Assembly: GCA_002452155.1 (NCBI GenBank)
Contig: DKEK01000003.1
Location: forward strand, 9,851-73,850
Length of the DNA stretch: 64,000 bases
DNA from: Candidatus Saccharibacteria bacterium UBA6824
GTDB lineage: Bacteria > Patescibacteriota > Saccharimonadia > Saccharimonadales > UBA10212
Direction of reading: 5' to 3'
The position numbers were made by a program, and so were the translations under genes. Under the pieces are notes generated by a model. That model ran no database searches and was not told the DNA's origin. It saw only the letters and a list, made by a program, of their open reading frames with translations. Shown here piece after piece: positions 7,474 through 63,904 of this stretch; the stretch's first letter is position 1; each line of letters begins with the position of its first letter.

Positions 7474-9135
7474 CTAAGCCGCAAAGTGAAAGATATAGAG
7501 TTGAATAGCAGACTTACCAATTGCGCTGGCGTGAGCAAAAGCCTTTTTAATAATGCTCAAGCCCACAAGCAGTTTCTTGATAATTTCGTGTGTGCCGCTG
7601 TCTTGAGGTGCTTTGTCTGTTTCTTCTTCATTCTTCAGCTTTTGCATTTCGTCGGCCAAATGCCATTTAAGCGTTAGGTATGACAAAGACTCAATGAGTT
7701 CAGGCGTGTAGTCAATGGCCATCTTGTCTAAGAGCTCGGTGAATAATACCTCTAGCTCTTCTTGGGCTTCAGCTTCGGTAATAATATTTTCGCCACTGCT
7801 GGCCTCAAGCTTTGCTGGCACCTCAATAATTTTATCCAAAATTTCATTCACCTTTTCAGTCGCTTCCTGTTCGCTGGCCTTGATGCGCCCAGTCAGCTGA
7901 ATGAGCGAGTCTTCAATTTCCTCAATGGTTAAACTAATCTGAGCAAGCTGTTCCGGGCTGGTGACTTCCAGTTGCCCTGAAAGGTCTGATTCATTACTTA
8001 ACTGGGAAATTGATGTTTCTTCTCCTGCCTCTAGGTCATACTCAGCAACCTCCAGGGTTGGCATAGAAGACATATATAGCTCATCAAGTTCCAGATCAAC
8101 TTCTTCAAGATGGTCTAGCAGAACTTCTTCTTCAACAAAATTAGTGAAACTCTTAGTGCCCGTTTGATAATCAAGAGTCGCTAGAGTTGGCTCATATTCG
8201 GCCACTTCAATTTTTTCATCGCTCAGTTCTGTAGTATCGTCTGAAGTGGCAGCGCTTTCGGGGTCTAAGGGTGATAGCCCTGTGGGTTCCGGTTCGGAAG
8301 TTGCTTCAATTGCCACGGACAAAGTAAAAGGTTCGGTCTCTTGGTCTGCGACAAGTTGGGGCCTATCCGGTGCTGGCACTTCTTCAACAATAGGATTTGC
8401 TGCAGCATTGACCTCTAGTATTTCGAAAGTTGGCATTTGCTGTTTTGCCTCAACCTTTGATTTAATGGCGAATTTTGTTTCCTTTAATTGACCTTCGGCT
8501 GAGGGTCCCATAGGCTTAAATTCTTGGCCGGTATCATCAATACCGGATTCTAGCACTGAGCTTTCGGAGGTACTGGTCGCAACAACCAATTCTTCAGGCG
8601 CGCCAGGATTGCTTCCTTCAGAGCCAGAGGACTTTTCTGCCCTACTAGCGGATAGCTCTATGTGTTTGGCCCGGTCAATTTCTTTTTTCGGTTGCCTCTT
8701 TGAATCGACCGTATTTAGGTCCCCCTGTACTTTCTGGGTTTCAATTTTTGTATTACTCCGCTGATCAACCTCTTCATTTTTTTCAAGTTCATCTTCTTCC
8801 TGCTTGTCTCCCTCGTCCGGCTCTTCAGTTTCTGTCACCCGATTGGCCAGTAATTGACTCACCGCCAATGATACTAGGTGAATATTTTCATAAGTTATTG
8901 GTTCTGGATACGCATTCATGGCGTCACTTAGCGTCACTTCCATGTCATTCAGCCAGGAACATCTAACAAGCACGTCTGCATTTGCGGCTACAAGGGCAAA
9001 CAACTCCGCATCCCAGTTGTCGTCGATTATTTCACTACCAAAGCCACCAGATACATTGGTCTGATCTTGTATTTCTGGAATGCTCGCAGCCTCATAACCC
9101 AAGTTCTGTCCGAGTGAATATGCAGTTTCCGACAT
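7474..9135 (-). CDS. hyper-acidic (E/D/S/T-rich) orphan protein with hydrophobic C-terminal tail
   Basis: Long uninterrupted ORF. I prefer the ATG at 9135 (MSETAYSLG), preceded by AGGGG about 10 nt upstream, over the GTG at 9153. The sequence is dominated by runs such as EEPDEGDKQEEDELEKNEEVDQ. The C-terminus LLVGLSIIKKAFAHASAIGKSAIQLYIFHFAA is amphipathic/hydrophobic. I recognise no family. Confidence 0.55.
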   Translation of the reverse strand: MSETAYSLGQNLGYEAASIPEIQDQTNVSGGFGSEIIDDNWDAELFALVAANADVLVRCSWLNDMEVTLSDAMNAYPEPITYENIHLVSLAVSQLLANRVTETEEPDEGDKQEEDELEKNEEVDQRSNTKIETQKVQGDLNTVDSKRQPKKEIDRAKHIELSASRAEKSSGSEGSNPGAPEELVVATSTSESSVLESGIDDTGQEFKPMGPSAEGQLKETKFAIKSKVEAKQQMPTFEILEVNAAANPIVEEVPAPDRPQLVADQETEPFTLSVAIEATSEPEPTGLSPLDPESAATSDDTTELSDEKIEVAEYEPTLATLDYQTGTKSFTNFVEEEVLLDHLEEVDLELDELYMSSMPTLEVAEYDLEAGEETSISQLSNESDLSGQLEVTSPEQLAQISLTIEEIEDSLIQLTGRIKASEQEATEKVNEILDKIIEVPAKLEASSGENIITEAEAQEELEVLFTELLDKMAIDYTPELIESLSYLTLKWHLADEMQKLKNEEETDKAPQDSGTHEIIKKLLVGLSIIKKAFAHASAIGKSAIQLYIFHFAA

Positions 9136-9389
9136 TAAAATACCCCTACTCACCGGCAGGGGTCGAAAATACTTAAGTAGGTCAAGCTTTTTACTCCTGC
9201 TCGAGAGATTTTATGAAGCTGTATCGGACTTTAACCGTTGCGGCACAGTTCCGGATTTACACCGGATTCCAGCTATTTAATTTGTTAACGCTTGCCCCGT
9301 ACCTCTTCAGGGTGAGAGTAGTCTGTAATCAGATTACGATAACGCCTGCAAAAGGTGCGTGGGTAAATTTATAATAGCACAGGTAGATT

Positions 9390-13313: not shown

Positions 13314-13388
13314 TGGCTCCGGAGGCCGGACTCGAACCGGCAACAATCGCCTTAACAGGGCGGTGCTCTACCATTGAGCTACTCCGGA
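13314..13388 (-). tRNA. tRNA-Asn (anticodon GTT), CCA encoded
   Basis: The minus-strand read is TCCGGAG TA GCTC AATGGTA GAGC A CCGCC CTGTTAA GGCGA TTGTT GCCGG TTCGAGT CCGGC CTCCGGA G CCA. This folds as a 75-nt cloverleaf with one C-A mismatch at 27:43. Confidence 0.9.
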
Positions 13389-50827: not shown

Positions 50828-51157
50828 GCCCTTACTTTACCACAGAGCCGGGGCTCTGGCCGGGCTGAAAAATGCTAAAAATACTTAACAAGTCAAGTAT
50901 TTTTGAGTTCAGTCCCTCAGACTGTCGGGCTACGTAGAATTCACAATGAAAACCCACAAAACATTCATAGTTATCCACTTAAGTTCACCTTTTTTCCACA
51001 CTTTAACAGATGGACCTGCATCCTGTGTATAACTTATCACCTACGGCTGCTGCGGCTGCGCAGACTGTAGTAATTTGTTACAAGGCTGTGGAAAACCAGG
51101 CTGGACTGGGGTATATTGATTAGACAAAAGGCGTTAAAGCGGGGGTCCAAAAAATAC
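50828..51157. other. oriC, left part (rpmH-dnaA intergenic) with DnaA-box-like 9-mers
   Basis: TTATCCACt at 50971-50979, TTtTCCACA at 50992-51000, TGTGtATAA at 51024-51032, and TTATCAC at 51034-51040. The first three are each 8/9 to TTATCCACA or its complement. Confidence 0.6.
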
Positions 51158-52543
51158 ATGCAGGAGAGCACTCTCTGGCAGGCAGTACTAGGCGAAATTG
51201 AGCTTAGTGTAAGTCGAGGTAATTTTGTGACCTGGTTCAAAAACACCCAGCTGATCCGCTACAAAGACGAGGTAGCGGTAGTCGGCGTAGCTAATATCTT
51301 TGTCAAGAACCAATTGGAGAATAAGTTTAATAGCCTGGTCATTGAGACACTGACCAAAAACGGCATCACGCCCAGCCGCGTCGAATATAAAATCCACACC
51401 GGTATTTCGCCACAAATTAAGCGCTTAGAGTCAGATGTTTTGAGGAACCAGGCTGTGGGCCCAAGCCAAACCAGGCAAAGCCCCCGGCAAAGAGCCACTA
51501 TTGGCGGCGTGACGCACAGTTACCGCCAGGGCCTAAACGACCGCTACAGCTTCGAAAACTTTGTGGTCGGTGCCGGCAACGAACTAGCCTATGCGGCCTG
51601 CCAGGCTATATGCCAAAAACCCGGCAGTAAATATAACCCGCTCTTTATATATGGCGGTGTGGGTATTGGTAAGACCCATTTGATCCAGGCGGTCGGCAAC
51701 GCTATTTTAGCGGCCAAACCAAACGCCCGGATTGTCTATGCTTCTACCGAGCAGTTTGTCCAGGAATTCGTCGACAGCCTACGGATTAAGAAAAATACCA
51801 GCGATTTTGCCAGCTTCTACCGCGGCTCGGACGTATTAATCGTTGACGACGTCCAGTTTTTAGCCGGCAAAGAAAGGGTCCAGGACGAATTCTTCCATAC
51901 CTTTAACACCCTTTACCAGGCCAACAAACAAATCATTATGAGCAGCGACAAGCCGCCGAAAGATATCCCGACGCTCGAAGAGCGCCTGCGCAGCCGTTTT
52001 GCCTGGGGTATGACCATCGACATGCAGACGCCGGATTTTGAAACCCGCTGTGCTATCTTGCAGAGTAAAGCCGGCGGCCAAGGCATAAACCTAAACCAGG
52101 CTGTGACCGAAGCTCTAGCCACCCGGGCCAGTAGCAATATCCGCGAACTAGAGGGCGCCCTTAACCAGCTACTGGCGTGGTGCGAAATGCGCGGCGTTGA
52201 GCCTGATATCGCTGTAGTTTCGGCTATGTTCGAGAGTGACAAAGCCCGGCCCAAACATATAAGCGCCCGCCAAATTATCGAACGTACAGCCCGGCATTTC
52301 CATATATCCATGGAGGATATCCTCGGTCCTAAACGCGATAAGGATATCGTGGTGCCGCGTCAAATTGCCATGTATATGCTTAGGTCGGAGTTACATTTAT
52401 CATATCCAAAGATCGCCCACGAGCTCGGCCGCAAAGACCACACTACCGCCATCCACTCGATTGACAAGATCGAGAAAGAGTTGGGTTACGATGGTTCCAT
52501 TAAACAATATGTAAGCGAACTAAAAGAGAGGCTGTACGCTTAA
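51158..52543 (+). CDS. dnaA: chromosomal replication initiator DnaA
   Basis: AAA+ Walker A YGGVGIGKTHL, Walker B VLIVDDVQFL, and C-terminal DNA-binding block GRKDHTTAIHSIDKIE. Start is set at the ATG at 51158 (MQESTLWQAVLGEIE) rather than the track's 51116. Confidence 0.93.
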   Translation: MQESTLWQAVLGEIELSVSRGNFVTWFKNTQLIRYKDEVAVVGVANIFVKNQLENKFNSLVIETLTKNGITPSRVEYKIHTGISPQIKRLESDVLRNQAVGPSQTRQSPRQRATIGGVTHSYRQGLNDRYSFENFVVGAGNELAYAACQAICQKPGSKYNPLFIYGGVGIGKTHLIQAVGNAILAAKPNARIVYASTEQFVQEFVDSLRIKKNTSDFASFYRGSDVLIVDDVQFLAGKERVQDEFFHTFNTLYQANKQIIMSSDKPPKDIPTLEERLRSRFAWGMTIDMQTPDFETRCAILQSKAGGQGINLNQAVTEALATRASSNIRELEGALNQLLAWCEMRGVEPDIAVVSAMFESDKARPKHISARQIIERTARHFHISMEDILGPKRDKDIVVPRQIAMYMLRSELHLSYPKIAHELGRKDHTTAIHSIDKIEKELGYDGSIKQYVSELKERLYA

Positions 52544-52788
52544 ATGAATAGTTGTGGAAAGTTAGTGCACAAGCTGGGTGCTCGACTTGTACAAGTCGAG
52601 TGTTTGTACTCGCTTTGCACAGACGCTGGGTTGAGTGGCCGGTTTTTTGTACGCAGGCTATCCACAGACACGCCAGGCTTTAGCACAGTTTATGCAAGTC
52701 GGTTTTGGAAGAATCGGTCTGTTGGGCTTAGTTGTGCTCATTATACACAAGCCCTATGTCTACAAATTAATATAGAAAGTTATTAGTA
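52544..52788. other. oriC, right part (dnaA-dnaN intergenic): DnaA-box-like 9-mers plus AT-rich stretch
   Basis: TGTGGAAA at 52553-52560, cTATCCACA at 52658-52666, TTATaCACA at 52741-52749, then AAATTAATATAGAAAGTTATTAGTAA immediately before dnaN. Confidence 0.6.
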
Positions 52789-53874
52789 ATGAAGCTACAA
52801 GTCACTCAGGAAAATTTAAGCCGGGCGCTTGGCAGTGTTGCCCGGGTTGCCTCTACTCGTAACACCCTGCCCATCTTATCTAACGTCTTACTTAAAACCA
52901 CTGATAATCGGTTGAGTATTGCTGCCACCAATCTAGATATCGCCATAACCCACCAAATCGGCGGCAAAATTACTAAAACTGGCGCCATAACCGTACCAGC
53001 TAGGTTGATGCAAGATTTTGTGACCAGCCTGCCCGACAACGTGCTAGACCTGGAACTCAAAGACAACAAACTTAGCATCAGCACCGATAAATACCACTCA
53101 ACCATCAACGGTATAAGCTCCGATGACTTCCCAATTATGCCAGCCATAAAAGGTGGTTCAACCTGGAAAATTCCGGCTGGTGAGCTTAAACGCGGCTTGC
53201 AAAAAGTGGTACTGGCCGCCAGCAGCGACGATGTCCGACCAGTTCTAACCGGCGTTTATTTTCACGACCTGGCCGGCGAAGCCGCTATCGCGGCAACCGA
53301 CAGTTACCGCCTGGCCGAGCACAAACTGGGCAAACATAAAAGCAAACTCAATTTTTTGGTACCCGCCAGTGCGGCCTCTGACCTGCTGCGGATTATTGGT
53401 GATAACAGTGACGAAATAACCATCACCCACGACGACCAGCAAGTGATGTTTAAGGTCGGAGACATAACACTAGTCGCCCGTTTAATCGAGGGTAACTACC
53501 CCGATTACCGAAAGTTAATCCCCACCAAATTTGCAACAGTAGCCCGACTGGCGCGGGCGGATTTTATCAATATCGCTAAAGTCTCCAGTCTGTTCGCCCG
53601 CGAAAGCGCCGGCAGTATTACCATTAACGCCGTGTCCCAAAAAGTCAGCATCAATGCCATTGCTTCGCAGCTTGGCGAAAATATGGCCGAGGCCGATGCG
53701 GAAGTTAAAGGCTCGGGCGAAGTGACCTTAAACTCCCGTTATCTCATCGAAGCCCTCAATGCATTTTCGGGCGAACAAATTGACTTTTGCTTCAACGGCA
53801 AACTGGAACCATGCATCCTGCGCAGTAGCGATGATAACAATTACACCCACCTTGTAATGCCCCTTAGAAGCTAA
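52789..53874 (+). CDS. dnaN: DNA polymerase III beta sliding clamp
   Basis: 361 aa with the three-domain clamp pattern (LPILSNVLLKT..., VRPVLTGVYF..., EGNYPDYRKLIP). Position after dnaA. Confidence 0.92.
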   Translation: MKLQVTQENLSRALGSVARVASTRNTLPILSNVLLKTTDNRLSIAATNLDIAITHQIGGKITKTGAITVPARLMQDFVTSLPDNVLDLELKDNKLSISTDKYHSTINGISSDDFPIMPAIKGGSTWKIPAGELKRGLQKVVLAASSDDVRPVLTGVYFHDLAGEAAIAATDSYRLAEHKLGKHKSKLNFLVPASAASDLLRIIGDNSDEITITHDDQQVMFKVGDITLVARLIEGNYPDYRKLIPTKFATVARLARADFINIAKVSSLFARESAGSITINAVSQKVSINAIASQLGENMAEADAEVKGSGEVTLNSRYLIEALNAFSGEQIDFCFNGKLEPCILRSSDDNNYTHLVMPLRS

Positions 53875-53894
53875 GAATCTTGTAACCTAGTAGT

Positions 53895-54956
53895 GTGATT
53901 AGCAGCATTCGCTTACAGCACTTTAGATCATATGCTGATGAAAGCTTTGAGTTTGACCCGGAGGTTAATATCATTGTCGGGCCAAACGGCAGCGGCAAAA
54001 CCAACCTCCTGGAAGCCGTATTGGTCCTAGGCAGCGGTAGCTCTTACCGGGCCCACGACGCAGATTTGGTGGCGTTTGGTAAGCCCTGGGCACGGCTAGA
54101 CGGCGCTTTTGCCAAACACGCCCGAACGCTCAGGCTAATTGCCCAAAGCGGCAAAAGCCAAAAAAGCTATGAACTTGATGGTAAGGAGTACAAACGCTTG
54201 AATCTGGAGCGTACTGTGCCGGCGGTTTTGTTTGAGCCAAACCATTTGCAGTTGGTGACCCGAGGCCCAGAGCAGCGCCGGGAATATTTCGATGACATAC
54301 TGCAGCGTACCACCCCGGGCTTCAAAAGCCTTCGGGCCAGCTATCACCGGACGCTGGCTCAACGCAATTCCCTGCTCAAGCAAGGGCCGGCGGCGGCGGC
54401 CAAACAACTTTTTGCCTGGGATGTCCGCCTCAGTCAGCTTGGTGCCCAAATAGTTGCCGCCCGCCTGGCTCTGCTTGAGCAGATCAACTCAGCAATTAGC
54501 CAAACCTACAGTCAAATATCTGGTAAAAAAAGTGAAGTGGGCCTGGAGTATGACAGTCCCATAAAGCTTAATGACTACTCCTCGCGTCTACTGGCTAAAC
54601 TGGAGGCAAACGTTAGTTCAGATTTTGCCCGAGGATTTAGCGCCTACGGGCCTCACCGCGAGGACTTTATAATTTACATAAATGGGCAACCGGCCAATGC
54701 TAGTGCTTCGCGCGGCGAACTGCGCAGCCTGTTGCTAGCCCTCAAAATATTTGAACTCAAACTTTTGCAAACTGTCCGCGGCCAGAAGCCGATATTTCTG
54801 CTCGACGATGTTTTTTCCGAACTCGACGGCGCCCGTCGCAAACATCTGGTCGAGCACCTAAAAGGCTACCAGACTATCATCACCACCACCGATGCCGAGG
54901 CCGTCATGGAATATTTTTCGGACAAACACAAACTGATTGCTCTTGGTGCAGGCTAA
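53895..54956 (+). CDS. recF: DNA replication and repair protein RecF
   Basis: GTG start. Walker A IVGPNGSGKTNLLEA, signature SRGELRSLLLALK, Walker B IFLLDDVFSELD. Confidence 0.9.
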   Translation: MISSIRLQHFRSYADESFEFDPEVNIIVGPNGSGKTNLLEAVLVLGSGSSYRAHDADLVAFGKPWARLDGAFAKHARTLRLIAQSGKSQKSYELDGKEYKRLNLERTVPAVLFEPNHLQLVTRGPEQRREYFDDILQRTTPGFKSLRASYHRTLAQRNSLLKQGPAAAAKQLFAWDVRLSQLGAQIVAARLALLEQINSAISQTYSQISGKKSEVGLEYDSPIKLNDYSSRLLAKLEANVSSDFARGFSAYGPHREDFIIYINGQPANASASRGELRSLLLALKIFELKLLQTVRGQKPIFLLDDVFSELDGARRKHLVEHLKGYQTIITTTDAEAVMEYFSDKHKLIALGAG

Positions 54957-54960
54957 AGAA

Positions 54961-55716
54961 TTAAAGGTGGGGCTTTATCTTCGTAGGTTTGAGCCCAATG
55001 TAGTTGAGGTTAGGCTGAACGTAGGATGGTTTTTTAAACTGGGCCATTATCTCTAAGACCGGCGTCAGAATGCCTTTAGGGGTGTTAAAGGGCACCATCA
55101 GTTTTAAATTGGAATCGCTGTCGACCTTGGTTGCTAATAGACTTGGGGCAATAGCTTTGCCGCGGTGAATATCGGATGGGTAAGCGTAGGTTTTATAATG
55201 GGCGGTCTTTAGATCTATCCACTTAGTATTTTGAGTGTTTACAGCACTGTCCACACCCGAGCCGTCGTTTAAGTACCCAAGCGCCCAGGTACGCTTATCG
55301 GTATCGGACCGATAAAGACGTGGCAACTGGATTAGATAAGACTGGCCTTTGGGCACTCGCCAGCGTCCGGGCACTTTAGCTTTAGAGCGCTCAGCAGCCG
55401 CAATCGGTGCGTTATTGATCAATGTCCCGGGTCCGACCAAGATCGCGCCGCCCCAAACGAAGTTGGGGTGAGCATGAGGCATTTCATCACCCATGTCGAC
55501 GCTATTCATACTTTCCAGAGCCTCGGCGGCTACTTGGTATGGATCCTGGGCCTCCGCTGAATCGGCCAAGCGTTCGATCTTTACTCCGGAACTGGCTGAC
55601 TCAACCGGCTGGGCGGCGGCTTCGCCGGTAAAGCCAGCTAAAGCAGCAGCCGCCAATGTGGTAGCTGCGCCCCTTCGGCTTATTTCGAATTTTAGGGCTC
55701 TTTCAGTCATTGTCAT
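54961..55716 (-). CDS. secreted protein with twin-arginine-like signal, unknown function
   Basis: The N-terminus is LKFEISRRGAATTLAAAALAGFTGEAAAQP (RR plus hydrophobic region plus AxA-like site). I recognise no family for the remainder. Confidence 0.5.
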   Translation of the reverse strand: MTMTERALKFEISRRGAATTLAAAALAGFTGEAAAQPVESASSGVKIERLADSAEAQDPYQVAAEALESMNSVDMGDEMPHAHPNFVWGGAILVGPGTLINNAPIAAAERSKAKVPGRWRVPKGQSYLIQLPRLYRSDTDKRTWALGYLNDGSGVDSAVNTQNTKWIDLKTAHYKTYAYPSDIHRGKAIAPSLLATKVDSDSNLKLMVPFNTPKGILTPVLEIMAQFKKPSYVQPNLNYIGLKPTKIKPHL

Positions 55717-55786
55717 TAAGCTTAAAATCGTACATCTTAGATATTACCATACTTACGGGGAAAAGTCAATGATGGAACCCCATCAT

Positions 55787-56395
55787 TCATGGTCCGACAT
55801 ACTCATAAATAATCTCTAGTTTAGAAAGGTCGTAGCCCTTAAATTTAAGCCAATCTTGGGCGTCTTTTTTGGCGGCCTCGGTGTAGTAGCTAACGTAAAC
55901 AGCTACGGCGCCAGGATCATTTGGGTGCTGAACTGAACGGCCGTAGTCCACCCGCCATAGCAGATCAATAAACGGCAACTCCTTAATAAGCGGTAGCCGT
56001 CTTTGCTGATCTAAGGAAATTTGGTCAAAGTTTTTGCTGGAAATTCCCTCGGCTTTTTTGGCGTCTTCCGGGTGGCTTTTATACCAATCGGCAGTGGCGG
56101 CGGAATTAGGGCTTAAAGATACCCCCACGAAGCTACTTTCTCCTTTGGTAAGCTGAACATCTTTACTGTAGTCCGAGAAACCATTTTGGCTAAAAGTTAG
56201 GTGGTAAGAACCCGGTTTTACCTTTAGCTGGCCTCCACGGACTGCGTTGCCGTTTATATTTATGTGGGAGCCTGTAGGGGCGACTTCCAGGGTCAACTTA
56301 GCCGATAAGCTGTGGTTATGGTAAATAAACCAGCCACCCAGGACAACAACCGGCAGAAGCACTAAAATAGTCAGCCTTTTGATATTAGGCGTCAT
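55787..56395 (-). CDS. PEGA-domain membrane-anchored protein
   Basis: Anchor LTILVLLPVVVLGGWFIY. PEGA-like beta domain LTLEVAPTGSHININGNAVRGGQLKVKPGSYHLTFSQNGFSDYSKDVQL. Confidence 0.6.
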   Translation of the reverse strand: MTPNIKRLTILVLLPVVVLGGWFIYHNHSLSAKLTLEVAPTGSHININGNAVRGGQLKVKPGSYHLTFSQNGFSDYSKDVQLTKGESSFVGVSLSPNSAATADWYKSHPEDAKKAEGISSKNFDQISLDQQRRLPLIKELPFIDLLWRVDYGRSVQHPNDPGAVAVYVSYYTEAAKKDAQDWLKFKGYDLSKLEIIYEYVGP

Positions 56396-56399
56396 AGCT

Positions 56400-58373
56400 T
56401 TACTTAAGCCTCGCTATCATATAATAACCTCTTTCATCTTGGGTGATAGCTGTGCCTAGGCTAGGCATCCGGCTATCTAAAGAAGCGCTGGCCTCATTGT
56501 ACTGGCCCCCTTGCTTGCCGACAAAAATGTAGGTATGTCCGTTGGCGCCGGCGCCATTACCAACGTGGTAAACTCCGCTGGCATCAACGTAGCTGCCCTC
56601 GTTAACTATTAATATGTCTCCTTCCTTTAATTCTTTAGGGTCAGAGACCTTGTAAATAACGTCGTATTTTGCCGGGTTGTCTAAAACGTACTGCGCTTGA
56701 ACAGTAGTACCAGACGCAGGATAGTTTTTATCGGCGCCGCTGGCGTGCATAACGGTGCCGACAAAGACGCCACAATCGGCCTCACTGCCGATTACACTAC
56801 TGTTATATTTCTTTACCCCTTCTAAATATTCTGGCTTGGCCTCCAGCGGCGGGCTGTGTGGCCCCGGCCAGGAATAGCTAAGAGCCGTTTGGACGATGTT
56901 ACCGGCCATAACACTACCGGAACAAGCAGTGGAGCCTCCACCTCCAGTACTTGGGACGGCTTTCATAATGCCGTCGGCAATACCGGTTGCATATTTTTGT
57001 TTGTCAAAGCCGCCGGACCCGGTTTCGTTATAAACCCAGGCGGTTTTAGAGAGCAACTGTACGATTGGGATGTCACCCCAGGCTAAAACGTCACCTCTAT
57101 CTTTGGGGAAGCTTAAATCAAGCGGTGCGACGTTGGTTTTGTCACCGGTTTGGCTGCGGGCGGCGGCTATAATTTGGGAGTAGCGTAGGCTTTTATCGGC
57201 CAGGGCGGCATCGGTGAAGGTTTTGCGTTTGCCATTATCTTTATTCTCCCTAAATCTGCCTACTTCTTGGGGGGTCACGCCGTAGTGCTCGTTTGGCGTA
57301 CCAAAGTCTGCGCCACCGGTGTAGTGCAGACTGACGGCTATCGCGGCATTAGCTTGGTCGGCCCGTCCGATCTTGGTTACAAAGCCAGCCGGATCATCCT
57401 CGCTGTTTTTGGTCAAAACAACCTTGTAGCCCTTGGCCTCGAGCTTGGTCTTCATTAGCTGGGCCGTATCCCACATATTTTGCATTTCCCCCGGCGCTCC
57501 GCCATTCTCTTTGGTTTCGATCCCGGAAGCCGGGTCGACCTGGGCAGTGGCAGCGCCGGCGTGGCCAGGATCAATCACGATGGTAGAGGCGCCGGCGGTA
57601 GTATTGCCACCCGTGCTGGGCGCGCAGACACAGCCGGCCTGCCCTGAGCCGGTGGTTCCGCCACCGCCCCCAGCCGGACCAGGCACAGGGTCTGGGTACC
57701 CCGGCTTACCGGATTTTGTGAAACCGGATGTGATCAAGCTGTAAACGTTACTTACATACTCTCGGGTTTCTTTAAATAGTGTGGATAACGGTGCATCCGG
57801 ACCCCATCGCTGGACTTGGCCCGGGCCGGCGTTATAAGAAGCGGCAATTTGCAGCAATGTATTAGTCTTAAGCGGTCGATCGAGGGAACCGAGCGGCGAA
57901 TTAGGTGTGGCGTTGTAGCTGGAAAGCAGCTTGGCGGCCGAGTAGGCAGCGTCGTAAATATTGTTAATGTCTTTAACGCCGTCATTGTTGCCGTCAGTTG
58001 CATAAGCCTGCCAGGTCAGCGGCATAAACTGAAAAGGGCCAGAAGCCCCGGATGGAGAAGTATCCCATTTTGTATCAAATGGTTTCCAGGTATTGCTGTT
58101 TTCACTTAAAAATATGGCGGCTAAGAGCGGCGCACTTGTATTGAACGCCGCCGCCGCTTGGTTAAACAATGCGGCGTACTGATCTGGTATAGTCGCCGGA
58201 AGTGTGGAATCCACAGGGGCATCACCATTACTGCAATTACCGCCGGCATCATAATACGGGTGTTGTTCAATAAGACTTTGGACGTCCGAGCTGGTTAGAG
58301 CCAGAACGGAAGGCTGCCAGAGTGTAAGTGCCGCCAGCAGCAAAAAGGCTATATTCCTAAACCTAAACTTCAC
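56400..58373 (-). CDS. three-domain secreted peptidoglycan hydrolase: SLT lytic transglycosylase + Amidase_3 + NlpC/P60- or CHAP-like cysteine peptidase
   Basis: Signal peptide IAFLLLAALTLWQPSVLA. SLT blocks FLSENS, GASGPFQFMPLTW, IAASYNAGPG. Gly/Pro linker GPAGGGGGTTGSG. Amidase_3 blocks IVIDPGHAG and AVSLHYTGG. C-domain has Cys in EADCGVFVGTV and His in NGHTYIFVG. Confidence 0.8.
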   Translation of the reverse strand: MKFRFRNIAFLLLAALTLWQPSVLALTSSDVQSLIEQHPYYDAGGNCSNGDAPVDSTLPATIPDQYAALFNQAAAAFNTSAPLLAAIFLSENSNTWKPFDTKWDTSPSGASGPFQFMPLTWQAYATDGNNDGVKDINNIYDAAYSAAKLLSSYNATPNSPLGSLDRPLKTNTLLQIAASYNAGPGQVQRWGPDAPLSTLFKETREYVSNVYSLITSGFTKSGKPGYPDPVPGPAGGGGGTTGSGQAGCVCAPSTGGNTTAGASTIVIDPGHAGAATAQVDPASGIETKENGGAPGEMQNMWDTAQLMKTKLEAKGYKVVLTKNSEDDPAGFVTKIGRADQANAAIAVSLHYTGGADFGTPNEHYGVTPQEVGRFRENKDNGKRKTFTDAALADKSLRYSQIIAAARSQTGDKTNVAPLDLSFPKDRGDVLAWGDIPIVQLLSKTAWVYNETGSGGFDKQKYATGIADGIMKAVPSTGGGGSTACSGSVMAGNIVQTALSYSWPGPHSPPLEAKPEYLEGVKKYNSSVIGSEADCGVFVGTVMHASGADKNYPASGTTVQAQYVLDNPAKYDVIYKVSDPKELKEGDILIVNEGSYVDASGVYHVGNGAGANGHTYIFVGKQGGQYNEASASLDSRMPSLGTAITQDERGYYMIARLK

Positions 58374-60958
58374 GGCGTGGCTCCGGCCGATGTGCCGACG
58401 TTTTGGATATCTATCAGTTCGTTTAGGGCGTTGTGGTAGCTTTGGTTGAGGCGCCAGCGGAAAATCATGTCGCCGGTATGTTTGGTGCGGCTGTCGGTAT
58501 CAAGTGCCAGCGGGTCGGAAGTATTGTTGATGCCAAGATTTGTTGGCGAACAAAGGCCACCATCTGTAACATTGCCACTAGCTTCCTCGCGACTGATCAT
58601 TTTAGGGTCACTTAGTAGTGTGCCCATGGTTTCTGTAAAGCAAACGTTATATTTAGCGGCTATGGCGTCTGCCTGACCAGGAGTTGTATTTTCCAAAATG
58701 TCGGCATTGACTAGCGGGTCGCCATAAGTGGGATCAGTATCAATTAGATTGTTTTCCTCATTACTCCAGCCCCACTGCATAAGGTTGTAGTTGGTGCTAT
58801 CGGTATTGCTAGCTGCGCTCACCCCGTGAGTGAAAGGCGACAACAAGTTTCTGGCCGCTCCCGAGAACATGCTCGAGAACCCGGCCAAGCCCTGGGGGAT
58901 TTTGCTGGGAGAGCTAAACAAGCGAGACAGGTTTATCAACTGGATGGAAAAAAATGAATTAGGATTGCTGAGTGCAAAATAGCGCTGGAAGAAGCTTTTG
59001 TTTGCCTGTTGCTTATTTAGATACTCTGCATCGACAAGCTTCGTGGAGTTTGACTCTTGGATTGTCAGCGGCCGGCCGTAATTTTGCTGGCGGTCCAGCT
59101 CGTTATTGTATACGACACCTCCCATATCGGCCTGGTTGACTAGATCCTTTGTGTCAGCACCATTGACTAGGGCACCCATTTCAGATATTACAATCATCCG
59201 GGCGGCATAAGTTATAGCGTCGGTTCCGGCGACGGCTGCGCCATTAGTAACACCAAATTTTAAGGCTCCGTTTCTGACTATTCGGCGCTGGATGGGGTCC
59301 GTGAAACGAAGCAGAGCCCGCTCCATTATAGTGGCTGTAGCTTTTTTAGCGGGGACCTCCAAAGCTCTAGTCCCAAGTTTTTCAATTGCGGTATCTATCA
59401 GCTTGCCCACGCCGGGCAAAAGCAGCTGGGCAGCAGTTATGCCCAGGACGCCGTATAGCAGTTCGTCACTTAGCAAGTTCGGACAAACGCTGCTAGCAAA
59501 GCTATTGGCTAAGCCAGCAGCCGGACCAAAAGTCGCGTCAAATATAGTGTAACTCTGCACCCTGGTGGCTTGGGCGTAGGGCTCGGTGGTAGTATTAATA
59601 GCTTCCTTGCGGACCAGCTTCTCGGGGTTGGTTTCACCTATATTACCGATCAGTTTATCGATGGCGGCGACAGCTTCTGCCGAAACATGGCCTGGTTTTT
59701 GCTGGTCGGCGGCTGAATTCAGCGCAAAGAAGGTTTTTAGGGCGGCAGAATTCTGGGCCTCGATTACGGCTTTGGAAGTTTCAACAGACCCGTCATAGAT
59801 CATACATACCGGTGCGCCAATAGAATAAAGTATGGTTAAGTAACCGGCCGGACCGTCGGCTAAGCTTTTAATTTTGTCGGCGAACTCAACGGCCCTTTTG
59901 GACGCGCCCGATGCTTCGAATAAGGACAATTGGCCGCTGTGGACCTTTTCGGCACAGGCGGCATTGGCCAAACAAGCCTTCTCGTCCTCAATGGCTTTTT
60001 GGGCTTCATCGGCAACGCCACCGGAACTGTTTTTTCCTGTTGCCGCTGTTCCCGTTGTTGGGGTGTTGACATCCTCAAATAGCTGTAGCTGGGTATCGCG
60101 CGAAACCTGGCTGGGTTTTTTGCCTCTTTCATCAGCCCCTTTCCTCTGCCAAAAATAGAGTTTGCCCCCAAAACTACTAACCATGGCTTTTGATACCCGG
60201 CTACGGACAAGATAGCTTTGGCCGTCCCGCAGCAGTGCCTGATTGGTCTGGGTATAAATGTGCTCATAGAAATTTCTCCACTGAGCACGGTTTTCCCAGA
60301 ACTTCCCGAACTGTAATTCGGGGGCGGGAACCTTCCGTCCGTCAATAATCACATTGGTGATTTTGCCACTGCTCGGGTCAGTAAAAAAATCCAGCGAACC
60401 AGTGGCCTTCATAGTCCGTACAGCCGTCTGAGGGCTATAAATATTCAGAGTCCGGCCCAACGCGCTTTTGCTGAGCAGGCTTTTAGCCTCGGTCTCAGTT
60501 GTTAAATCGACGGCCACTTTTTCGGCGGTCACGGCGGTGACGTTGCGGGCAAATGTTCGGCCGGAGCGGGCCAAGCGTCTTTCTAGGTGGCTTTGCAGAT
60601 GCGGTAGTTTAAGTGAGGGCAAGATAACACCAAAAAGTGCAATTACAACTGCTGATATAAGGGCGGCTAAAGAGGCGCTTATAGCGACTTTTTTTCGGTT
60701 GGCTGATATCCTTTGCCTAAGCGATCCAGACCTTTTACCACTGCCAGTGTGACCCCTCCCGACTTGATCGGGGTGTCTATAGGTTTGGCTATCGTCCTGT
60801 TCCTGACCATCTTCGGCGGCATTTTCTTTTTCGGATATATCCGCTGCGCTGTCCGGTACATATAGGTCTTTATCAGCGGATGAAGCTTCGCTATCAGAAT
60901 CCGCAGCTGGCTGGCTACCCGGTTCATCATAGGGCTCCTTCAGTTCGGGGTCGGCCAC
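58370..60958 (-). CDS. 862-aa membrane protein of the T4SS-like operon (possible VirB6/TcpH/PrgH-type channel component)
   Basis: Acidic, disordered N-terminal ~90 aa. TM VAISASLAALISAVVIALFGVILPSL and further hydrophobic segments (YLTILYSIGAPVCMIY, LLYGVLGITAAQLLLPGVG, ITYAARMIVISEMGALV). 4-nt overlap with the hydrolase gene. I recognise no family; the role is inferred from context only. Confidence 0.45.
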   Translation of the reverse strand: MADPELKEPYDEPGSQPAADSDSEASSADKDLYVPDSAADISEKENAAEDGQEQDDSQTYRHPDQVGRGHTGSGKRSGSLRQRISANRKKVAISASLAALISAVVIALFGVILPSLKLPHLQSHLERRLARSGRTFARNVTAVTAEKVAVDLTTETEAKSLLSKSALGRTLNIYSPQTAVRTMKATGSLDFFTDPSSGKITNVIIDGRKVPAPELQFGKFWENRAQWRNFYEHIYTQTNQALLRDGQSYLVRSRVSKAMVSSFGGKLYFWQRKGADERGKKPSQVSRDTQLQLFEDVNTPTTGTAATGKNSSGGVADEAQKAIEDEKACLANAACAEKVHSGQLSLFEASGASKRAVEFADKIKSLADGPAGYLTILYSIGAPVCMIYDGSVETSKAVIEAQNSAALKTFFALNSAADQQKPGHVSAEAVAAIDKLIGNIGETNPEKLVRKEAINTTTEPYAQATRVQSYTIFDATFGPAAGLANSFASSVCPNLLSDELLYGVLGITAAQLLLPGVGKLIDTAIEKLGTRALEVPAKKATATIMERALLRFTDPIQRRIVRNGALKFGVTNGAAVAGTDAITYAARMIVISEMGALVNGADTKDLVNQADMGGVVYNNELDRQQNYGRPLTIQESNSTKLVDAEYLNKQQANKSFFQRYFALSNPNSFFSIQLINLSRLFSSPSKIPQGLAGFSSMFSGAARNLLSPFTHGVSAASNTDSTNYNLMQWGWSNEENNLIDTDPTYGDPLVNADILENTTPGQADAIAAKYNVCFTETMGTLLSDPKMISREEASGNVTDGGLCSPTNLGINNTSDPLALDTDSRTKHTGDMIFRWRLNQSYHNALNELIDIQNVGTSAGATP

Positions 60959-60965
60959 TTCGTAC

Positions 60966-63038
60966 CTAGCTCTCGTGGCTTAGGCGGACTTCGTTAGAAG
61001 ATGCTGCCGGAGGTGCGGGTGCCGCTGGTGGTGGCTTAACTTCTGTTTTAATTGCTCGCACCGGCGCCGAAGAGGCAACACCTGACTGGACTGGTGGCAT
61101 GGGCGGTGGGAGTACCGGCTCGGCTATCTGTGAAGCAGGTGTTAGTCCCGGCGCCAGTTCTTCCGGCGTCGGCATAGCGAGGGGCCCCGTATCTATGGCC
61201 TGCGGCGCGTTGTCGCCGGGGTTAGAAGTAATAAGGCCGGTTTCGGTTGGGCTAGCAATGACCTGAATGTGCACATGATTTTGGCCGGCAAAGAACAACC
61301 CTTGGCCAATCGGGAACTGACTGAGCCGCTTGGTTTCCTCGCTAGTTAGCTTGAAAACATCAGCTAGCACATCCACCGCGCTGGGGCTTTGTTTTAGCAG
61401 GATTTGCATACTGGCGTTAGCTACGATCGCCCGGCCCATACGTGAAGCCATAAAGTCCTCAACATCCTGGGTTATGGTAGTTAGCCCCAAGTTGTATTTG
61501 CGTGCCCGCTTGGCGAGGCTGAACATAAAGTTGGCGCTGTCTTCATAGCGCATTAGCTGCCAAGCCTCGTCGACAATTAGCAGTCGTTTTTTGCGCTCGG
61601 CCTTGGTCTTATTCCAAATGTAGTTCAGCACAATATACATAGCTACAGGTCGCAATTCATCCTCTAAATCGCGGATGTTGAAAACCACCATCGGATTATT
61701 AACGTTAACATTACTGGGCTGCGAAAATATACCGGCAAAAGTCCCGCTGGTATACTTGCGCAGGCGTTGGGCTAAACTAGGCCCGGTACCGCCCATATGA
61801 AGCAGTGTATCGTATAGATCGCTGACGGTTGGCGGCGGTGAGCCATGGGTCAATGGGTCATTAGTGATGCCGGCTTTGGCGTAAGTTTCAATTAAGGCTG
61901 CGTCCAGGTCAGCTTCTTCGGCCGGGCTAAGTGCCGGTGCTAACGCCGAACCGCCGCCTTGCACCATTTGAGTTTGGGCGCCGCCCATCATTAGGCGCAA
62001 CAGCCCATGCAGTGTAATTAAATTAGAGCGCAGAGCATTGTCGGCTTCCTCACTGTCAACCACCTGAGGCAGGTCAAACGGGTTGATGCGCGTCGGGCTG
62101 GCCAGGCTGAGGCGTACATAGGCGCCGCCGACGGCATCGCACATCCGCTGGTATTCATTTTCCGGGTCAATGATAAAAACTTCGGTGCCGAACATCATAC
62201 TGCGCAAGGCCTCTAACTTAACCGTAAAGCTCTTACCGGCACCGGATTTGGCAAACACCACGCTGTTACTGTTTTCTAAAGAAAATCGGTCAAAAATTAC
62301 CAGGCCGGAGTTATGCATATTAATGCCGTATAAAATCCCGTTTTCCTGCGTCAGGTCGGCGCTGGTGAAGGGGAAACTGGTGCTCAGTGCGCCGGTATTC
62401 ATGTTGCGATAGATTTGTAGCTGGTCGACATACTGCGGGATGGTGCTGTTTAGGCCTTGTTCCTGCTGGGCGGTCGCCGGCTTGGAATAAATTAGTTGCT
62501 GACCAAGCATTGACTCAACCTTATGACTGACAAACTCCAGCTCTTCCATTGAACTGCCGTAGATAGTGAAATAAAAACCAAAACGGAAGAAACGTTCTTC
62601 ACCAACCTGCAGTTTGTCGCGCATCTCTTCGGCATCTTGGACAGTCACTTGCTTGCCCGGATCGCGCACCCGGCCTTTCTCGGCATCGATTTGGATGCCG
62701 GCTTCCAGTTGGGAAACCTTTTTCCGCAAGTTATTTAAGACAATCTGGCTGTCAACCGGCTGAATAACCATCGACAGGTCAATAACTTCGTCTAGGTTAA
62801 TCATGCCAGACAGCCAACCGGTATAGACCTGCCGGGGGTAGCCGTAAACATAATAGGTTCGGGCAAAGCGTGTGCCAATTCTAAAATGGTTCCCATTAAA
62901 TTCGAGCGAACTGGGGGCGATGAAATCGCGCAGGGCGGTAACACCTTTAGCAAAAGCCCGGCTGACCTCTTGCTTTTCCAGCGCCTGCTGCTGGGCTACA
63001 GGATCAAGCTGGCTATTTTTATTACCAAACCCCAGCAT
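60966..63038 (-). CDS. virB4: VirB4/TraE/TrsE-family type IV secretion ATPase
   Basis: N-terminal VirB4-type domain (FIAPSSLEFNGNHFRIGTRFARTYYVYGYPRQVYTGWL), Walker A VVFAKSGAGKSFTVK, Walker B RLLIVDEAWQL, and the TTITQDVEDF block. The C-terminal ~80 aa are Pro/Ala-rich. Confidence 0.85.
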   Translation of the reverse strand: MLGFGNKNSQLDPVAQQQALEKQEVSRAFAKGVTALRDFIAPSSLEFNGNHFRIGTRFARTYYVYGYPRQVYTGWLSGMINLDEVIDLSMVIQPVDSQIVLNNLRKKVSQLEAGIQIDAEKGRVRDPGKQVTVQDAEEMRDKLQVGEERFFRFGFYFTIYGSSMEELEFVSHKVESMLGQQLIYSKPATAQQEQGLNSTIPQYVDQLQIYRNMNTGALSTSFPFTSADLTQENGILYGINMHNSGLVIFDRFSLENSNSVVFAKSGAGKSFTVKLEALRSMMFGTEVFIIDPENEYQRMCDAVGGAYVRLSLASPTRINPFDLPQVVDSEEADNALRSNLITLHGLLRLMMGGAQTQMVQGGGSALAPALSPAEEADLDAALIETYAKAGITNDPLTHGSPPPTVSDLYDTLLHMGGTGPSLAQRLRKYTSGTFAGIFSQPSNVNVNNPMVVFNIRDLEDELRPVAMYIVLNYIWNKTKAERKKRLLIVDEAWQLMRYEDSANFMFSLAKRARKYNLGLTTITQDVEDFMASRMGRAIVANASMQILLKQSPSAVDVLADVFKLTSEETKRLSQFPIGQGLFFAGQNHVHIQVIASPTETGLITSNPGDNAPQAIDTGPLAMPTPEELAPGLTPASQIAEPVLPPPMPPVQSGVASSAPVRAIKTEVKPPPAAPAPPAASSNEVRLSHES

Positions 63039-63904
63039 TAGTTAGCCTCGTTGTCCAGGTTTGGTTGCGGTGCTCTACCTTGACCCTTGTCTATTACTTC
63101 GGCTGTCAAATCATCCGGATTGCCTAGCTGCTGACGGACGGCGGTGTCAGGGTTATAGGCTTCGTAATAAAGTTCAATTAACTCCTGAGTATCTAGCGGT
63201 ACACTCTGGACACCGCACTGTAATAGTCCCTGCATGGCCGCCTGGACCCGATTTTTTAGTTCGGTCTTAGCGTTCTGCAGGGTATTTTCGTCGATTACTA
63301 CGTGCGGCGTTTTACTGCCGCCCACCAAATCGGCCAAGCCCGTAAAAAAACCGGTGCTGGTTCTGAGAGTCCGGCGGATGTCAGCATTGGCGTCAGGGTA
63401 GCCGATGACCATATAAAACTTTTTGTCCATAATGTTTGTTTGGCCGGCGATGTCGGCCAAAAAGGCCACGTAATCTTCCATTAGGAGCGCAAGCAACATG
63501 CTTTCTTGTTGGGAGCGGATCCTGTCCAACTTATCTAGATAGGGCCCTAGGTCAACTTTTTGGCTGCGTACAAATATCTGGATTGGAAAATATAGCGAAT
63601 TCAAAAAGCCCTGGTAGGCGAACTCCACTGCCTCGCGCTCCTGGGGGCTCATGAGATCAAAGTTGATAGCCTTACACATAATCACAGCCCGAAAGGTGCC
63701 ATCATTCATGATTACTAAGCCGTCGCGGATTTCACTTATGTGCAGCGTATTTTGGGTACTGTTGGGGTTGGGCGCCGGTCCTCCGCCTGTCCCGGTCGGC
63801 AGTTGGGGCATCGTTGGAGATAATTGCAAACCAGGCCCAGCTGCTGCCGGGCTGGCCGATACTCCCGGGGTTATAATATTCGGCGACTGGTTTGGATTCA
63901 TCAA
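63038..63904 (-). CDS. stand-alone protein resembling the N-terminal domain of VirB4-type ATPases, with P/G/Q-rich N-terminus
   Basis: LHISEIRDGLVIMNDGTFRAVIMCKAINFDLMSPQEREAVEFAYQGFLNSLYFPIQIFV follows the same pattern as the start of conjugative VirB4/TraC proteins (an initial beta-hairpin, then the 'nf.l.s..e' segment). No Walker motifs. 1-nt overlap with virB4. Confidence 0.5.
   Translation of the reverse strand: MMNPNQSPNIITPGVSASPAAAGPGLQLSPTMPQLPTGTGGGPAPNPNSTQNTLHISEIRDGLVIMNDGTFRAVIMCKAINFDLMSPQEREAVEFAYQGFLNSLYFPIQIFVRSQKVDLGPYLDKLDRIRSQQESMLLALLMEDYVAFLADIAGQTNIMDKKFYMVIGYPDANADIRRTLRTSTGFFTGLADLVGGSKTPHVVIDENTLQNAKTELKNRVQAAMQGLLQCGVQSVPLDTQELIELYYEAYNPDTAVRQQLGNPDDLTAEVIDKGQGRAPQPNLDNEAN

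Follow-up and report, generated by a model that had tools for sequence, protein, structure and literature searches.

A predicted Sec-exported three-module peptidoglycan hydrolase in a Saccharibacterial type IV secretion operon, and the family of shuffled modules to which it belongs

The window analysed here, a stretch of 64,000 nucleotides of contig DKEK01000003.1 of Candidatus Saccharibacteria bacterium UBA6824, carries a type IV secretion system (T4SS) gene cluster that continues past its edge. Our subject is one gene of that cluster, an open reading frame (ORF) at 56400..58373 on the minus strand that starts with GTG and encodes 657 amino acids (aa). A sequence-only reading of this DNA had proposed that it combines three catalytic wall-cutting activities in one T4SS-associated protein. 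The ORF listing and its translation contain the frame exactly as described there, with every quoted motif (FLSENS, GPFQFMPLTW, AASYNAGPG, IVIDPGHAG, SLHYTGG, DCGVFVGTV, GHTYIFVG), and an identical protein occurs on public contigs, including NCBI GCA_036771655.1. The parts of the gene are these:

56400..58373, minus strand: whole ORF, a predicted secreted three-module peptidoglycan hydrolase in the wall-opening slot of the T4SS (ORF, Pfam)
58299..58373, minus strand: Sec-type signal peptide, aa 1-25, MKFRFRNIAFLLLAALTLWQPSVLA followed by LT (read from the sequence)
57702..58208, minus strand: SLT/GH23 lytic-transglycosylase-type module, aa 56-224 (Pfam, profile, Foldseek, alignment)
57588..57701, minus strand: Gly-rich linker 1, aa 225-262, which holds the Cys motif AGCVCAPS (sequence, model confidence)
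56949..57587, minus strand: Amidase_3 (MurNAc-L-Ala amidase) module, aa 263-475 (Pfam, Cwp6 alignment, Foldseek)
56913..56948, minus strand: Gly-rich linker 2, aa 476-487, STGGGGSTACSG (sequence, model confidence)
56403..56912, minus strand: C-terminal NlpC/P60-superfamily Cys/His module, aa 488-657 (orthologs, profiles, model)

The end of the signal peptide, Ala25, is almost invariant both in an alignment of the query with ten other full-length homologs (11 sequences, alignment A1) and in a wider alignment of 44 hydrolases from the same operon slot, one per species, and cleavage would follow it at a site of A-x-A type. Inspection of the hydrolase sequence revealed neither a lipobox nor a second transmembrane segment. 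The full-length AlphaFold model (predicted local distance difference test score, pLDDT, 65; predicted template modelling score, pTM, 0.36) shows three folded modules set apart by low-confidence linkers (pLDDT below 50 at aa 233-260 and 477-491), and no fixed packing between the domains is therefore expected. The Gly-rich linkers that had been proposed are thus borne out: two are visible in the sequence and both are of low confidence in the model. A conserved cysteine stands just ahead of each domain: the near-invariant C49 before the SLT module, AGCVCAPS before the amidase (GQAGCVCA, 57612..57635, aa 247-254) and TACSGS before the C-terminal module (56913..56930, aa 482-487). The Kribbella protein described below (L033:8882-10486) has similar boundary cysteines, in SGCGCST and GASCGAG. 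These residues could be disulfide staples or leftovers of ancestral mature N-termini.

The first module is assigned to the SLT/GH23 lytic-transglycosylase type, with Glu91 as its candidate catalytic residue. Both SLT_2 (PF13406; E 4.7e-11, 42.9 bits against a cut-off of 24.3) and SLT (PF01464; E 3.5e-10, aa 69-191, 39.9 bits against 21.3) are recognised by Pfam, and the NCBIfam matches to this region, all sub-threshold, are MltB-type transglycosylases. A full-length profile matches MltB/Slt35/SltB structures (E 1e-6 to 7e-5), in an alignment that takes in an EF-hand-like loop, DGNNDGVKD, and sets E91 of FLSENS on the glutamate of V-E-T or V-E-S in MltB (9vlr) and SltB2 (7qvd). In Foldseek searches with the full-length model, Slt, MltF, Slt35 and T7 gp16 follow after the Amidase_3 structures. 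The module carries GPFQF and YNAG motifs, and E91, G112, P113, Q115, F116, Y180 and N181 are invariant in 11 of the 11 sequences of A1. The reading of E91 as the catalytic glutamate draws on established knowledge of MltB and Slt35. Which chemistry it would perform, transglycosylase or muramidase, is not readable from the fold, because the SLT-fold domain of PrgK, the hydrolase of plasmid pCF10, proved to be a muramidase.

The middle module matches Amidase_3 (PF01520; E 1.4e-8, 35.4 bits against 27) over aa 265-472 and over model positions 1-171 of 174, so that the SLT and Amidase_3 domains named by the sequence-only reading both lie above curated Pfam cut-offs. Aligned with C. difficile Cwp6 (5j72), H271, E296 and H350 fall on the zinc triad of DPGH, E and SIHY. 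A fourth residue, E450 of WVYNETG, lies inside the Pfam envelope at the site of the family's 'vE.gF' motif, an assignment made at the level of the motif. All four are invariant in A1, and we regard H271, E296 and H350 as candidate zinc ligands and E450 as the candidate catalytic glutamate. The closest structures are mycobacterial: the best nine Foldseek matches of the full-length model are Rv3717/Ami1 (E 2e-6 to 1e-5, target-relative template modelling (TM) score 0.60-0.65), and the best amidase among the sequence-profile matches is of the same type. About 25 Amidase_3 structures match with E below 1e-3 and a probability of 1.00, at TM 0.52-0.65 for targets with a single amidase domain. The NCBIfam family amidase_Rv3717 scores 24 bits, far under its cut-off of 335. 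Two low-confidence loops, aa 353-387 (57213..57317) and aa 418-437 (57063..57122), account for the length of the module beyond the Pfam model. The former follows shortly after the putative zinc ligand H350, near what we take to be the site of the autoinhibitory element in the cell-division amidases AmiB and AmiC, and the amidase might therefore be regulated.

The last ~170 residues, searched as a single sequence, had no significant match in Pfam, NCBIfam or the PDB; the PDB matches returned (dihydropyrimidinase-like proteins, CWC25) were dismissed as noise, and a profile was needed. Among orthologs, the C-domain of P0030 exceeds the Pfam cut-off for NLPC_P60 (29.4 bits, cut-off 23) and that of P0003 the cut-off for Amidase_5 (23.4 bits, cut-off 21); at E of 0.001 or less, NLPC_P60 is found in 7 of the 44 slot hydrolases and Amidase_5 in 2. 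As a profile, the C-domain matches Spr/MepS (2k1g) with E 0.0014, or 0.0046 for a broader profile, setting DCGGF on the DCSGF that contains the catalytic Cys of Spr and GHtyiyvG on the RHVGIYIG that contains its catalytic His. D533-C534-G535-x-F537 and H613-T614 are invariant in all 44 sequences, and in the AlphaFold model C534 opens the helix 534-544 and H613 the strand 613-621. Modelled separately (pLDDT 79, pTM 0.81), the domain has NlpC/P60 enzymes as its five best Foldseek matches, joined by 4xcm, at weak scores (E 0.066 to 2.7, TM 0.36-0.45). The profile also weakly matches 7bk8 (MagC; E 0.12), a peptidoglycan-binding NlpC/P60-like protein. Membership in NlpC/P60 holds at the level of the family profile, not from the query sequence alone, and on this footing the module is assigned as an NlpC/P60-superfamily Cys/His domain that would be an endopeptidase or an amidase. 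The C-terminal peptidase-like domain of the sequence-only reading therefore stands through its orthologs, its profile and a weak fold match, whereas the query itself stays under the Pfam threshold. A profile search of a 5.8-billion-protein database with this domain returned 34 mostly fragmentary proteins and was uninformative on architecture. In proper alignments none of the three domains lacks its candidate catalytic residues, a possibility that had been raised: E91, H271/E296/H350/E450 and C534/H613 are all invariant among the aligned homologs.

The gene is encoded in the T4SS gene cluster and, as we read its arrangement, co-transcribed with it. Around it lie the following genes, in which SEML1 tags denote the counterparts in Candidatus Southlakia epibionticum ML1:

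63038..63904, minus strand: TraC-like T4SS component, 288 aa (precomputed Pfam in the contig gene table)
60966..63038, minus strand: VirB4-like T4SS ATPase, CD1110 family (NCBIfam NF045971, E 3.6e-106, 356 bits against 325; Pfam P-loop_TraG)
58370..60958, minus strand: upstream operon gene, 862 aa, no recognised family (counterpart of SEML1_0007 by position)
55787..56395, minus strand: PEGA-domain membrane-anchored partner, 202 aa (Pfam PEGA, 25.3 bits against 20.8)
54961..55716, minus strand: last gene of the cluster, exported protein without family, 251 aa, or 249 aa in the gene table of the contig (counterpart of SEML1_0004 by position)
53895..54956, plus strand: recF, adjoining the last cluster gene

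The GTG start of the hydrolase overlaps the TGA stop of the 862-aa gene (ccGTGAag), and the hydrolase would therefore be translationally coupled to the T4SS operon; only 4 nucleotides separate its stop from the ATG of the PEGA gene (TAAagctATG). The 862-aa protein has no match in Pfam, NCBIfam or PHROGs and appears to evolve fast, because homologs are detectable in only part of the loci. Past the window edge, on the same contig and strand, follow PrgI, a TrbL/VirB6-like protein (TrbL_3) and T4SS pilins. Downstream of the cluster the contig gene table places recF, dnaN and dnaA. The cluster (51116..63904 and on) thus abuts dnaA-dnaN-recF, near rnpA and yidC, in the presumed replication-origin region, and in S. 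epibionticum the T4SS cluster likewise lies at dnaA-dnaN-recF, rnpA and yidC (locus tags 0003-0019). The association with a T4SS, which had been proposed from the sequence, is upheld by the GTGA overlap, by VirB4 two genes upstream and by synteny in 41 of the 41 loci with enough flank.

The cluster matches the order of SEML1_0003-0011 of S. epibionticum one-to-one: recF (0003), a hypothetical gene (0004), PEGA (0005), 0006, 0007, VirB4 (0008), 0009, PrgI (0010) and a VirB6-like gene (0011) (PMC10633639). Tn-seq of that organism during epibiotic growth scored SEML1_0004-0010 as GD/ES/ES and SEML1_0011 as ES/ES/ES (Wang et al. 2023, Cell; PMC10633639, Tables S1/S2). Both SEML1_0005, the PEGA counterpart, and SEML1_0006, which occupies the hydrolase slot, are listed as essential (PMC10633639). 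SEML1_0006 has 643 aa, annotated as glucosaminidase PF01832, phage-tail lysozyme PF18013 and ECOD cysteine proteinase e7bk8A1, and SEML1_0007 has 1113 aa with an annotated C-terminal Hedgehog/DD-peptidase domain (PMC10633639). The Saccharibacterial T4SS is the first T4SS reported as indispensable to the survival of its carrier bacterium, and growth on the host requires it. As the positional counterpart of SEML1_0006, the present hydrolase may likewise be required for T4SS function.

The composition of the slot varies widely among relatives. We collected 81 homologs, some labelled Saccharimonadales or Saccharimonadia by their source, and sorted them with domain hidden Markov models (HMMs) built from the alignment. 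Thirteen share the SLT–Amidase_3–C layout of the query, and recurrence on this scale lies far beyond chance. The largest group (29/81) has an SLT–C layout of ~420 aa, similar to TraG of pIP501, and 23 of the 81 combine another first module with Amidase_3 and the C-module (X–Amidase_3–C); in 13/81 Amidase_3 is present and the C-module was not detected, and 3/81 have SLT only. Scanning species-representative genomes for matches to the C-domain profile turned up 80 loci, 49 of Saccharibacteria type and 31 others. VirB4 is present in all 41 Saccharibacteria loci with enough upstream sequence, and in 41 of these 41 the slot between VirB4/large protein and the PEGA gene holds a C-module hydrolase. 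The PEGA gene lies directly 3' of the hydrolase in 44 of the 49 Saccharibacteria loci and in 29 of 29 Kribbella-type loci.

What fills the rest of the protein is interchangeable. Pfam counts on the 44 slot hydrolases comprise Phage_lysozyme2 (15), NLPC_P60 (7), Amidase_3 (6), SLT_2 (5), SLT (3), Beta-lactamase2 (3), RPF-like transglycosylase (2) and Amidase_5 (2), with GH3, GDSL, M23 and transpeptidase once each; at least nine enzyme types are shuffled in this way, two to four modules to a protein. The longest set, of four, is found in a protein of 917 aa (L009:1779-4532) with Phage_lysozyme2, SLT, Amidase_3 and the C-module. Identities to the query differ by domain within single homologs: 30% in SLT, 59% in the amidase and 64% in the C-module for P0007, 64%, 79% and 51% for P0003, and 70% in the amidase and 37% in the C-module for P0027. 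Such incongruence is expected if modules are exchanged. We therefore read the Cys/His C-module and its PEGA neighbour as the constant part of the family and the N-terminal and middle modules as replaceable. The suggestion that three modules are unusual does not survive this comparison, since PrgK and SEML1_0006 also have three and L009 has four; the 'three activities' fall within a spread of two to four modules per protein, as a variant of a shuffled family and not a one-off.

Some members of the collection call for comment. The contig of the L009 protein, 4.5 kb long, has been binned as Verrucomicrobiia, and L035, binned as Nanoarchaeia, shows complete Saccharibacterial VirB4-hydrolase-PEGA-recF synteny; both contigs are probably mis-binned Saccharibacteria. 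An apparent natural fusion of the C-domain with PEGA, P0111, which would have spoken for a functional interaction of the two, was rejected as an artefact, as it has a mid-protein frame shift and comes from an error-prone Kribbella-like contig. In precomputed Pfam annotation, P0051 (761 aa) carries CHAP, a polysaccharide deacetylase, T4SS_pilin (PF18895) and Amidase_3; a fusion of pilin and hydrolase would mean a wall hydrolase borne on the pilus. Rates differ strongly inside the one operon, where VirB4 (60966..63038) is slow and PEGA (55787..56395) and the hydrolase C-module are fast: across Saccharibacteria species (loci L004-L083), identity to the window copy is 69-85% for VirB4, 38-63% for the C-module and 23-45% for PEGA.

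The 31 loci of the scan that lie outside Saccharibacteria divide into 29 of Kribbella/Kribbellaceae type and 2 of Yaniella (Micrococcaceae):

Kribbella-type loci: L027, L030-L033, L036-L045, L047, L049-L055, L058, L060, L063-L065 and L076 (for example L033:8882-11081)
Yaniella loci: L068 and L070 (for example L070:8243-10498)

The Kribbella protein (534 aa in L033) joins Peptidase_M23 and Phage_lysozyme2 to the C-module, so that it too has three modules, and a PEGA homolog (E 2e-27, 30% identical across 178 aa) comes directly after it with overlapping stop and start. Near this cassette, where the neighbours are metabolic genes, neither VirB4 nor another T4SS gene was detected. The only named organisms outside Saccharibacteria in a profile search with the PEGA partner were Kribbella species. 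An insertion of 4 residues is common to most Kribbella copies and a Saccharibacteria subclade (L034, L059, L067, L069, L074), along with the near-identical stretch GHT.IYTG.YKGGDGKTYNAA.ASL.GHVPEA. In Yaniella the protein is made up of SLT and the C-module (751 aa in L070) and sits among housekeeping genes (dnaE with an intein, a WYL/PafC-type regulator, tatC, a helicase) with no PEGA neighbour, and its TRPPSGH.TYL is common to Saccharibacteria locus L048 and, less closely, L077. The taxonomic distribution and shared indels, from which transfer was judged, suggest that transfer between Saccharibacteria and Actinomycetota took place at least twice, that of Yaniella being independent of that of Kribbella. 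The Kribbella cassette looks as though it was transferred long ago between two phyla, those of the epibiont and host lineages; its guanine-plus-cytosine (GC) content of 68-69% equals that of its flanks, which rules out a recent transfer into Kribbella. Parsimony favours the direction from Saccharibacteria to Kribbella, because the cassette is universal and syntenic in Saccharibacteria and confined to one actinomycete genus. A midpoint-rooted neighbour-joining tree agrees with this direction and cannot by itself give it. To our knowledge, Actinomycetota is the phylum of every host known for cultivated Saccharibacteria. The sharing cuts both ways, as it shows an ecological tie to the host phylum and, at the same time, a cassette workable without a T4SS.

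Elsewhere in the window lie an AdoCbl-II (cobalamin) riboswitch at 9211..9288 on the minus strand (47.1 bits against 36.5), just upstream of a 559-aa ORF at 7474..9153 on the same strand, and the sole tRNA of the window, at 13317..13388 on the minus strand.

Taken together, these results make it likely, in our judgement, that the gene encodes a Sec-exported peptidoglycan hydrolase of the T4SS slot whose three flexibly linked modules breach the wall locally. It would fill the VirB1-equivalent slot in the chromosomal T4SS, of monoderm type, of a Saccharibacterium (Patescibacteria, or the candidate phyla radiation). The Sec signal peptide would direct export, and release from the cell is probable, because there is no membrane anchor. 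Once outside, the SLT/GH23 module may cut the MurNAc-GlcNAc glycan strand with Glu91 as general acid; the Rv3717/Ami1-type zinc amidase may take stem peptides off MurNAc, with zinc held by H271, E296 and H350 and E450 as the catalytic residue; and the NlpC/P60-superfamily cysteine peptidase, with Cys534 and His613, may cut a bond within the stem peptide. Dismantling peptidoglycan locally would let the T4SS channel or pilus pass the wall, the cell's own and plausibly that of the host too. The breach of an actinobacterial host wall that the sequence-only reading put forward is thus plausible, on indirect evidence: the shuffling of modules, the cleavable signal peptide and the links to Actinomycetota. 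The C-module and the PEGA membrane protein would form the conserved core and may interact physically. The analysis establishes the identity of the domains, the conservation of their catalytic residues, the coupling within the operon, the synteny with a T4SS known to be essential and the modular make-up of the family; that each module is active, which bonds it cuts, that the protein leaves the cell and whose wall it cuts are inferred. Of the three activities originally proposed, the three module types and the retention of their candidate catalytic residues (in 11 to 44 homologs) hold up, while the residues are no proof of activity, as PrgK illustrates.

Several observations weigh against this interpretation. 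In PrgK activity is confined to one of the three hydrolase-like domains. Both PrgK and TraG are anchored in the membrane and have a cytoplasmic N-terminus, and the present protein has a signal peptide only. The query C-domain is sub-threshold for both NLPC_P60 (E 0.12, 12.9 bits against 23) and Amidase_5 (E 0.2), and its top Foldseek match is weak (E 0.066, probability 0.91, TM 0.45). The third residue of its triad, a polar one expected about 12 residues past the His, is ambiguous: E627 by the HMM alignment to the third His of Spr, or S629 by the register of the invariant A630-S631. Over the 44 sequences the residues at position 627 are A13/E8/V5/Q3/R3/S3 and those at position 629 are S17/D14/A6/Q3/E2/G2, and an acidic or amide residue stands at one or the other in 29 of 44 (counted by hand). 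Finally, the homologs of Kribbella and Yaniella occur in non-T4SS contexts, so the C-module is not strictly bound to a T4SS.

Some of these points lend themselves to other readings. A released hydrolase could be directed mainly at the host, cutting the thick actinobacterial wall for access of the pilus or channel or for wall harvest, with modules tuned to that host; this overlaps with the explanation we prefer and differs from it in the main target only. The cleavable signal peptide and missing anchor, the mycobacterial Ami1/Rv3717 structures nearest to the amidase, and a T4SS essential for growth on the host all fit it, as does a cassette exchanged with Actinomycetota, in which Kribbella and Yaniella have derived indels and motifs in common with subclades of Saccharibacteria. 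The very fast turnover of the N-terminal modules beside a VirB4 that is 69-85% identical fits as well, but the evolution of extracellular proteins generally outpaces that of cytoplasmic ATPases, and the rate contrast alone is therefore weak; moreover, what has been demonstrated for all T4SS hydrolases characterised so far is a role at the cell's own wall. We hold a mainly host-directed enzyme to be possible, though well short of probable. Somewhat less likely again is that one module is catalytically relevant and the rest regulatory or wall-binding. PrgK, in which LytM and CHAP modulate the central muramidase, is a precedent; the weak C-profile match to 7bk8 (E 0.12), the peptidoglycan-binding MagC, would point the same way, and so would the amidase loops at aa 353-387 and 418-437 near the presumed autoinhibitory site. 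Degenerate regulatory domains usually lose their catalytic residues, however, and here the canonical residues of all three modules are invariant.

The genomic setting bears on two further alternatives. The protein might be an autolysin with a housekeeping part in growth or cell separation, which only happens to lie beside T4SS genes at the origin, in which case the essentiality seen in the relative would reflect division. Kribbella and Yaniella do keep their homologs amid metabolic and housekeeping genes without a T4SS, and small Saccharibacteria genomes presumably have few hydrolases. Against that, the position between VirB4/large protein and PEGA is strictly kept in every locus with enough flank, translation of the gene is coupled to the T4SS operon, and hydrolases are standard in monoderm T4SSs, so that we think such an autolysin distinctly improbable. 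An endolysin or tail lysin left in a prophage remnant was suggested by PHROGs matches to endolysins and lytic tail proteins (E 3.5e-12 to 6.7e-7) and by the many family members with Phage_lysozyme2. The PHROGs matches, however, cover aa 58-239 alone, a generic SLT fold, none of the neighbouring genes matches a phage family, and the surroundings are a conserved chromosomal T4SS operon by dnaA/dnaN/recF; with SLT-only matches and non-phage neighbours, prophage origin is effectively refuted and we give it next to no credence.

A constant Cys/His module with its PEGA partner, shuffled modules around it and sharing with Actinomycetota lead to the hypothesis that module content reflects the target wall. 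It is tempting to go further and, as a speculation that we ourselves rate as rather doubtful, to picture an ancient wall-breaching cassette of C-module and PEGA that was wired into an essential T4SS, was re-armed with glycosidase, amidase, peptidase or beta-lactamase-like modules according to host wall chemistry, and crossed the boundary between epibiont and host phyla at least twice, once into or from a Kribbella ancestor and once in Yaniella. If such a host-matched cassette exists, the hydrolase would open the host wall and gate T4SS-dependent parasitism, and its module content would predict host range. The hydrolase is in any case among the few T4SS components with predictable, assayable biochemistry, and could inform on the role of the T4SS at the epibiont-host interface; the catalytic residues defined here are targets for mutation.

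Among characterised systems, the multidomain hydrolases TraG and PrgK are essential for transfer in Gram-positive conjugative T4SSs, and PrgK of pCF10 consists of LytM, an SLT-fold muramidase and CHAP, of which the middle domain alone degrades peptidoglycan. The present protein resembles PrgK in having three hydrolase-type domains encoded inside a monoderm T4SS operon, and TraG of pIP501, with SLT and CHAP, is akin to the ~29 SLT-NlpC members of the family. Neither has an Amidase_3 domain, and their Cys/His module is CHAP, not the NlpC/P60 subfamily found here. The hydrolase lacks the membrane anchoring of the ALPHA and DELTA classes, to which TraG and PrgK belong, and is closer to the BETA class, which is without an intracellular domain. 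SEML1_0006 is the nearest counterpart in setting, with the same operon slot, a near size (643 against 657 aa), three modules and a C-module assigned to ECOD e7bk8A1, 7bk8 being also a weak match of the present C-domain profile; the homology of the two C-modules was judged by synteny and position and by the published annotation, not by direct alignment. Both of its first modules are glycan cutters, whereas here an SLT-type module is paired with Amidase_3.

For the single modules the best comparisons are remote. Rv3717/Ami1 (PDB 4lq6, 4m6g, 7agl, 7agm, 7ago, 9cun) is the best structural match of the middle module at 16-19% identity; Rv3717 stands alone, whereas the present module lies between two others and has two extra loops. 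Spr/MepS (2k1g), at marginal E values (0.0014 to 0.0046), is the best solved-structure match in sequence of the C-module, which differs from it by an extra N-terminal helical segment and an insertion of ~20 aa ahead of the His and has no invariant counterpart of its third catalytic His. CwlT (ICEBs1) and TcpG (pCW3), which we take to be secreted two-module conjugation hydrolases with a glycan cutter and an NlpC/P60 endopeptidase, presumably follow the same logic as SLT plus C-module, although, as we understand them, they have neither an amidase nor a PEGA partner. They are presumably carried on mobile elements, in contrast to a hydrolase in an essential-type chromosomal T4SS.

That multidomain hydrolases lie in monoderm T4SS operons was known already, as was the Saccharibacterial slot, flagged as essential in a cultured relative. 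We found no description of the SLT–Amidase_3–C module set in the papers on T4SS hydrolases that we consulted, and the accessible part of the supplement to a 2025 survey of Patescibacteria T4SSs mentions neither Amidase_3 nor PF18013 nor PEGA, which does not prove their absence. What is new is the occurrence of Amidase_3 in a monoderm T4SS hydrolase, as against the CHAP, SLT, muramidase and LytM domains that a review lists for VirB1-like hydrolases, whose known domain set it widens. New too are the slot as a combinatorial family with a constant NlpC/P60-like and PEGA core, and the links of this family to Kribbella and Yaniella.

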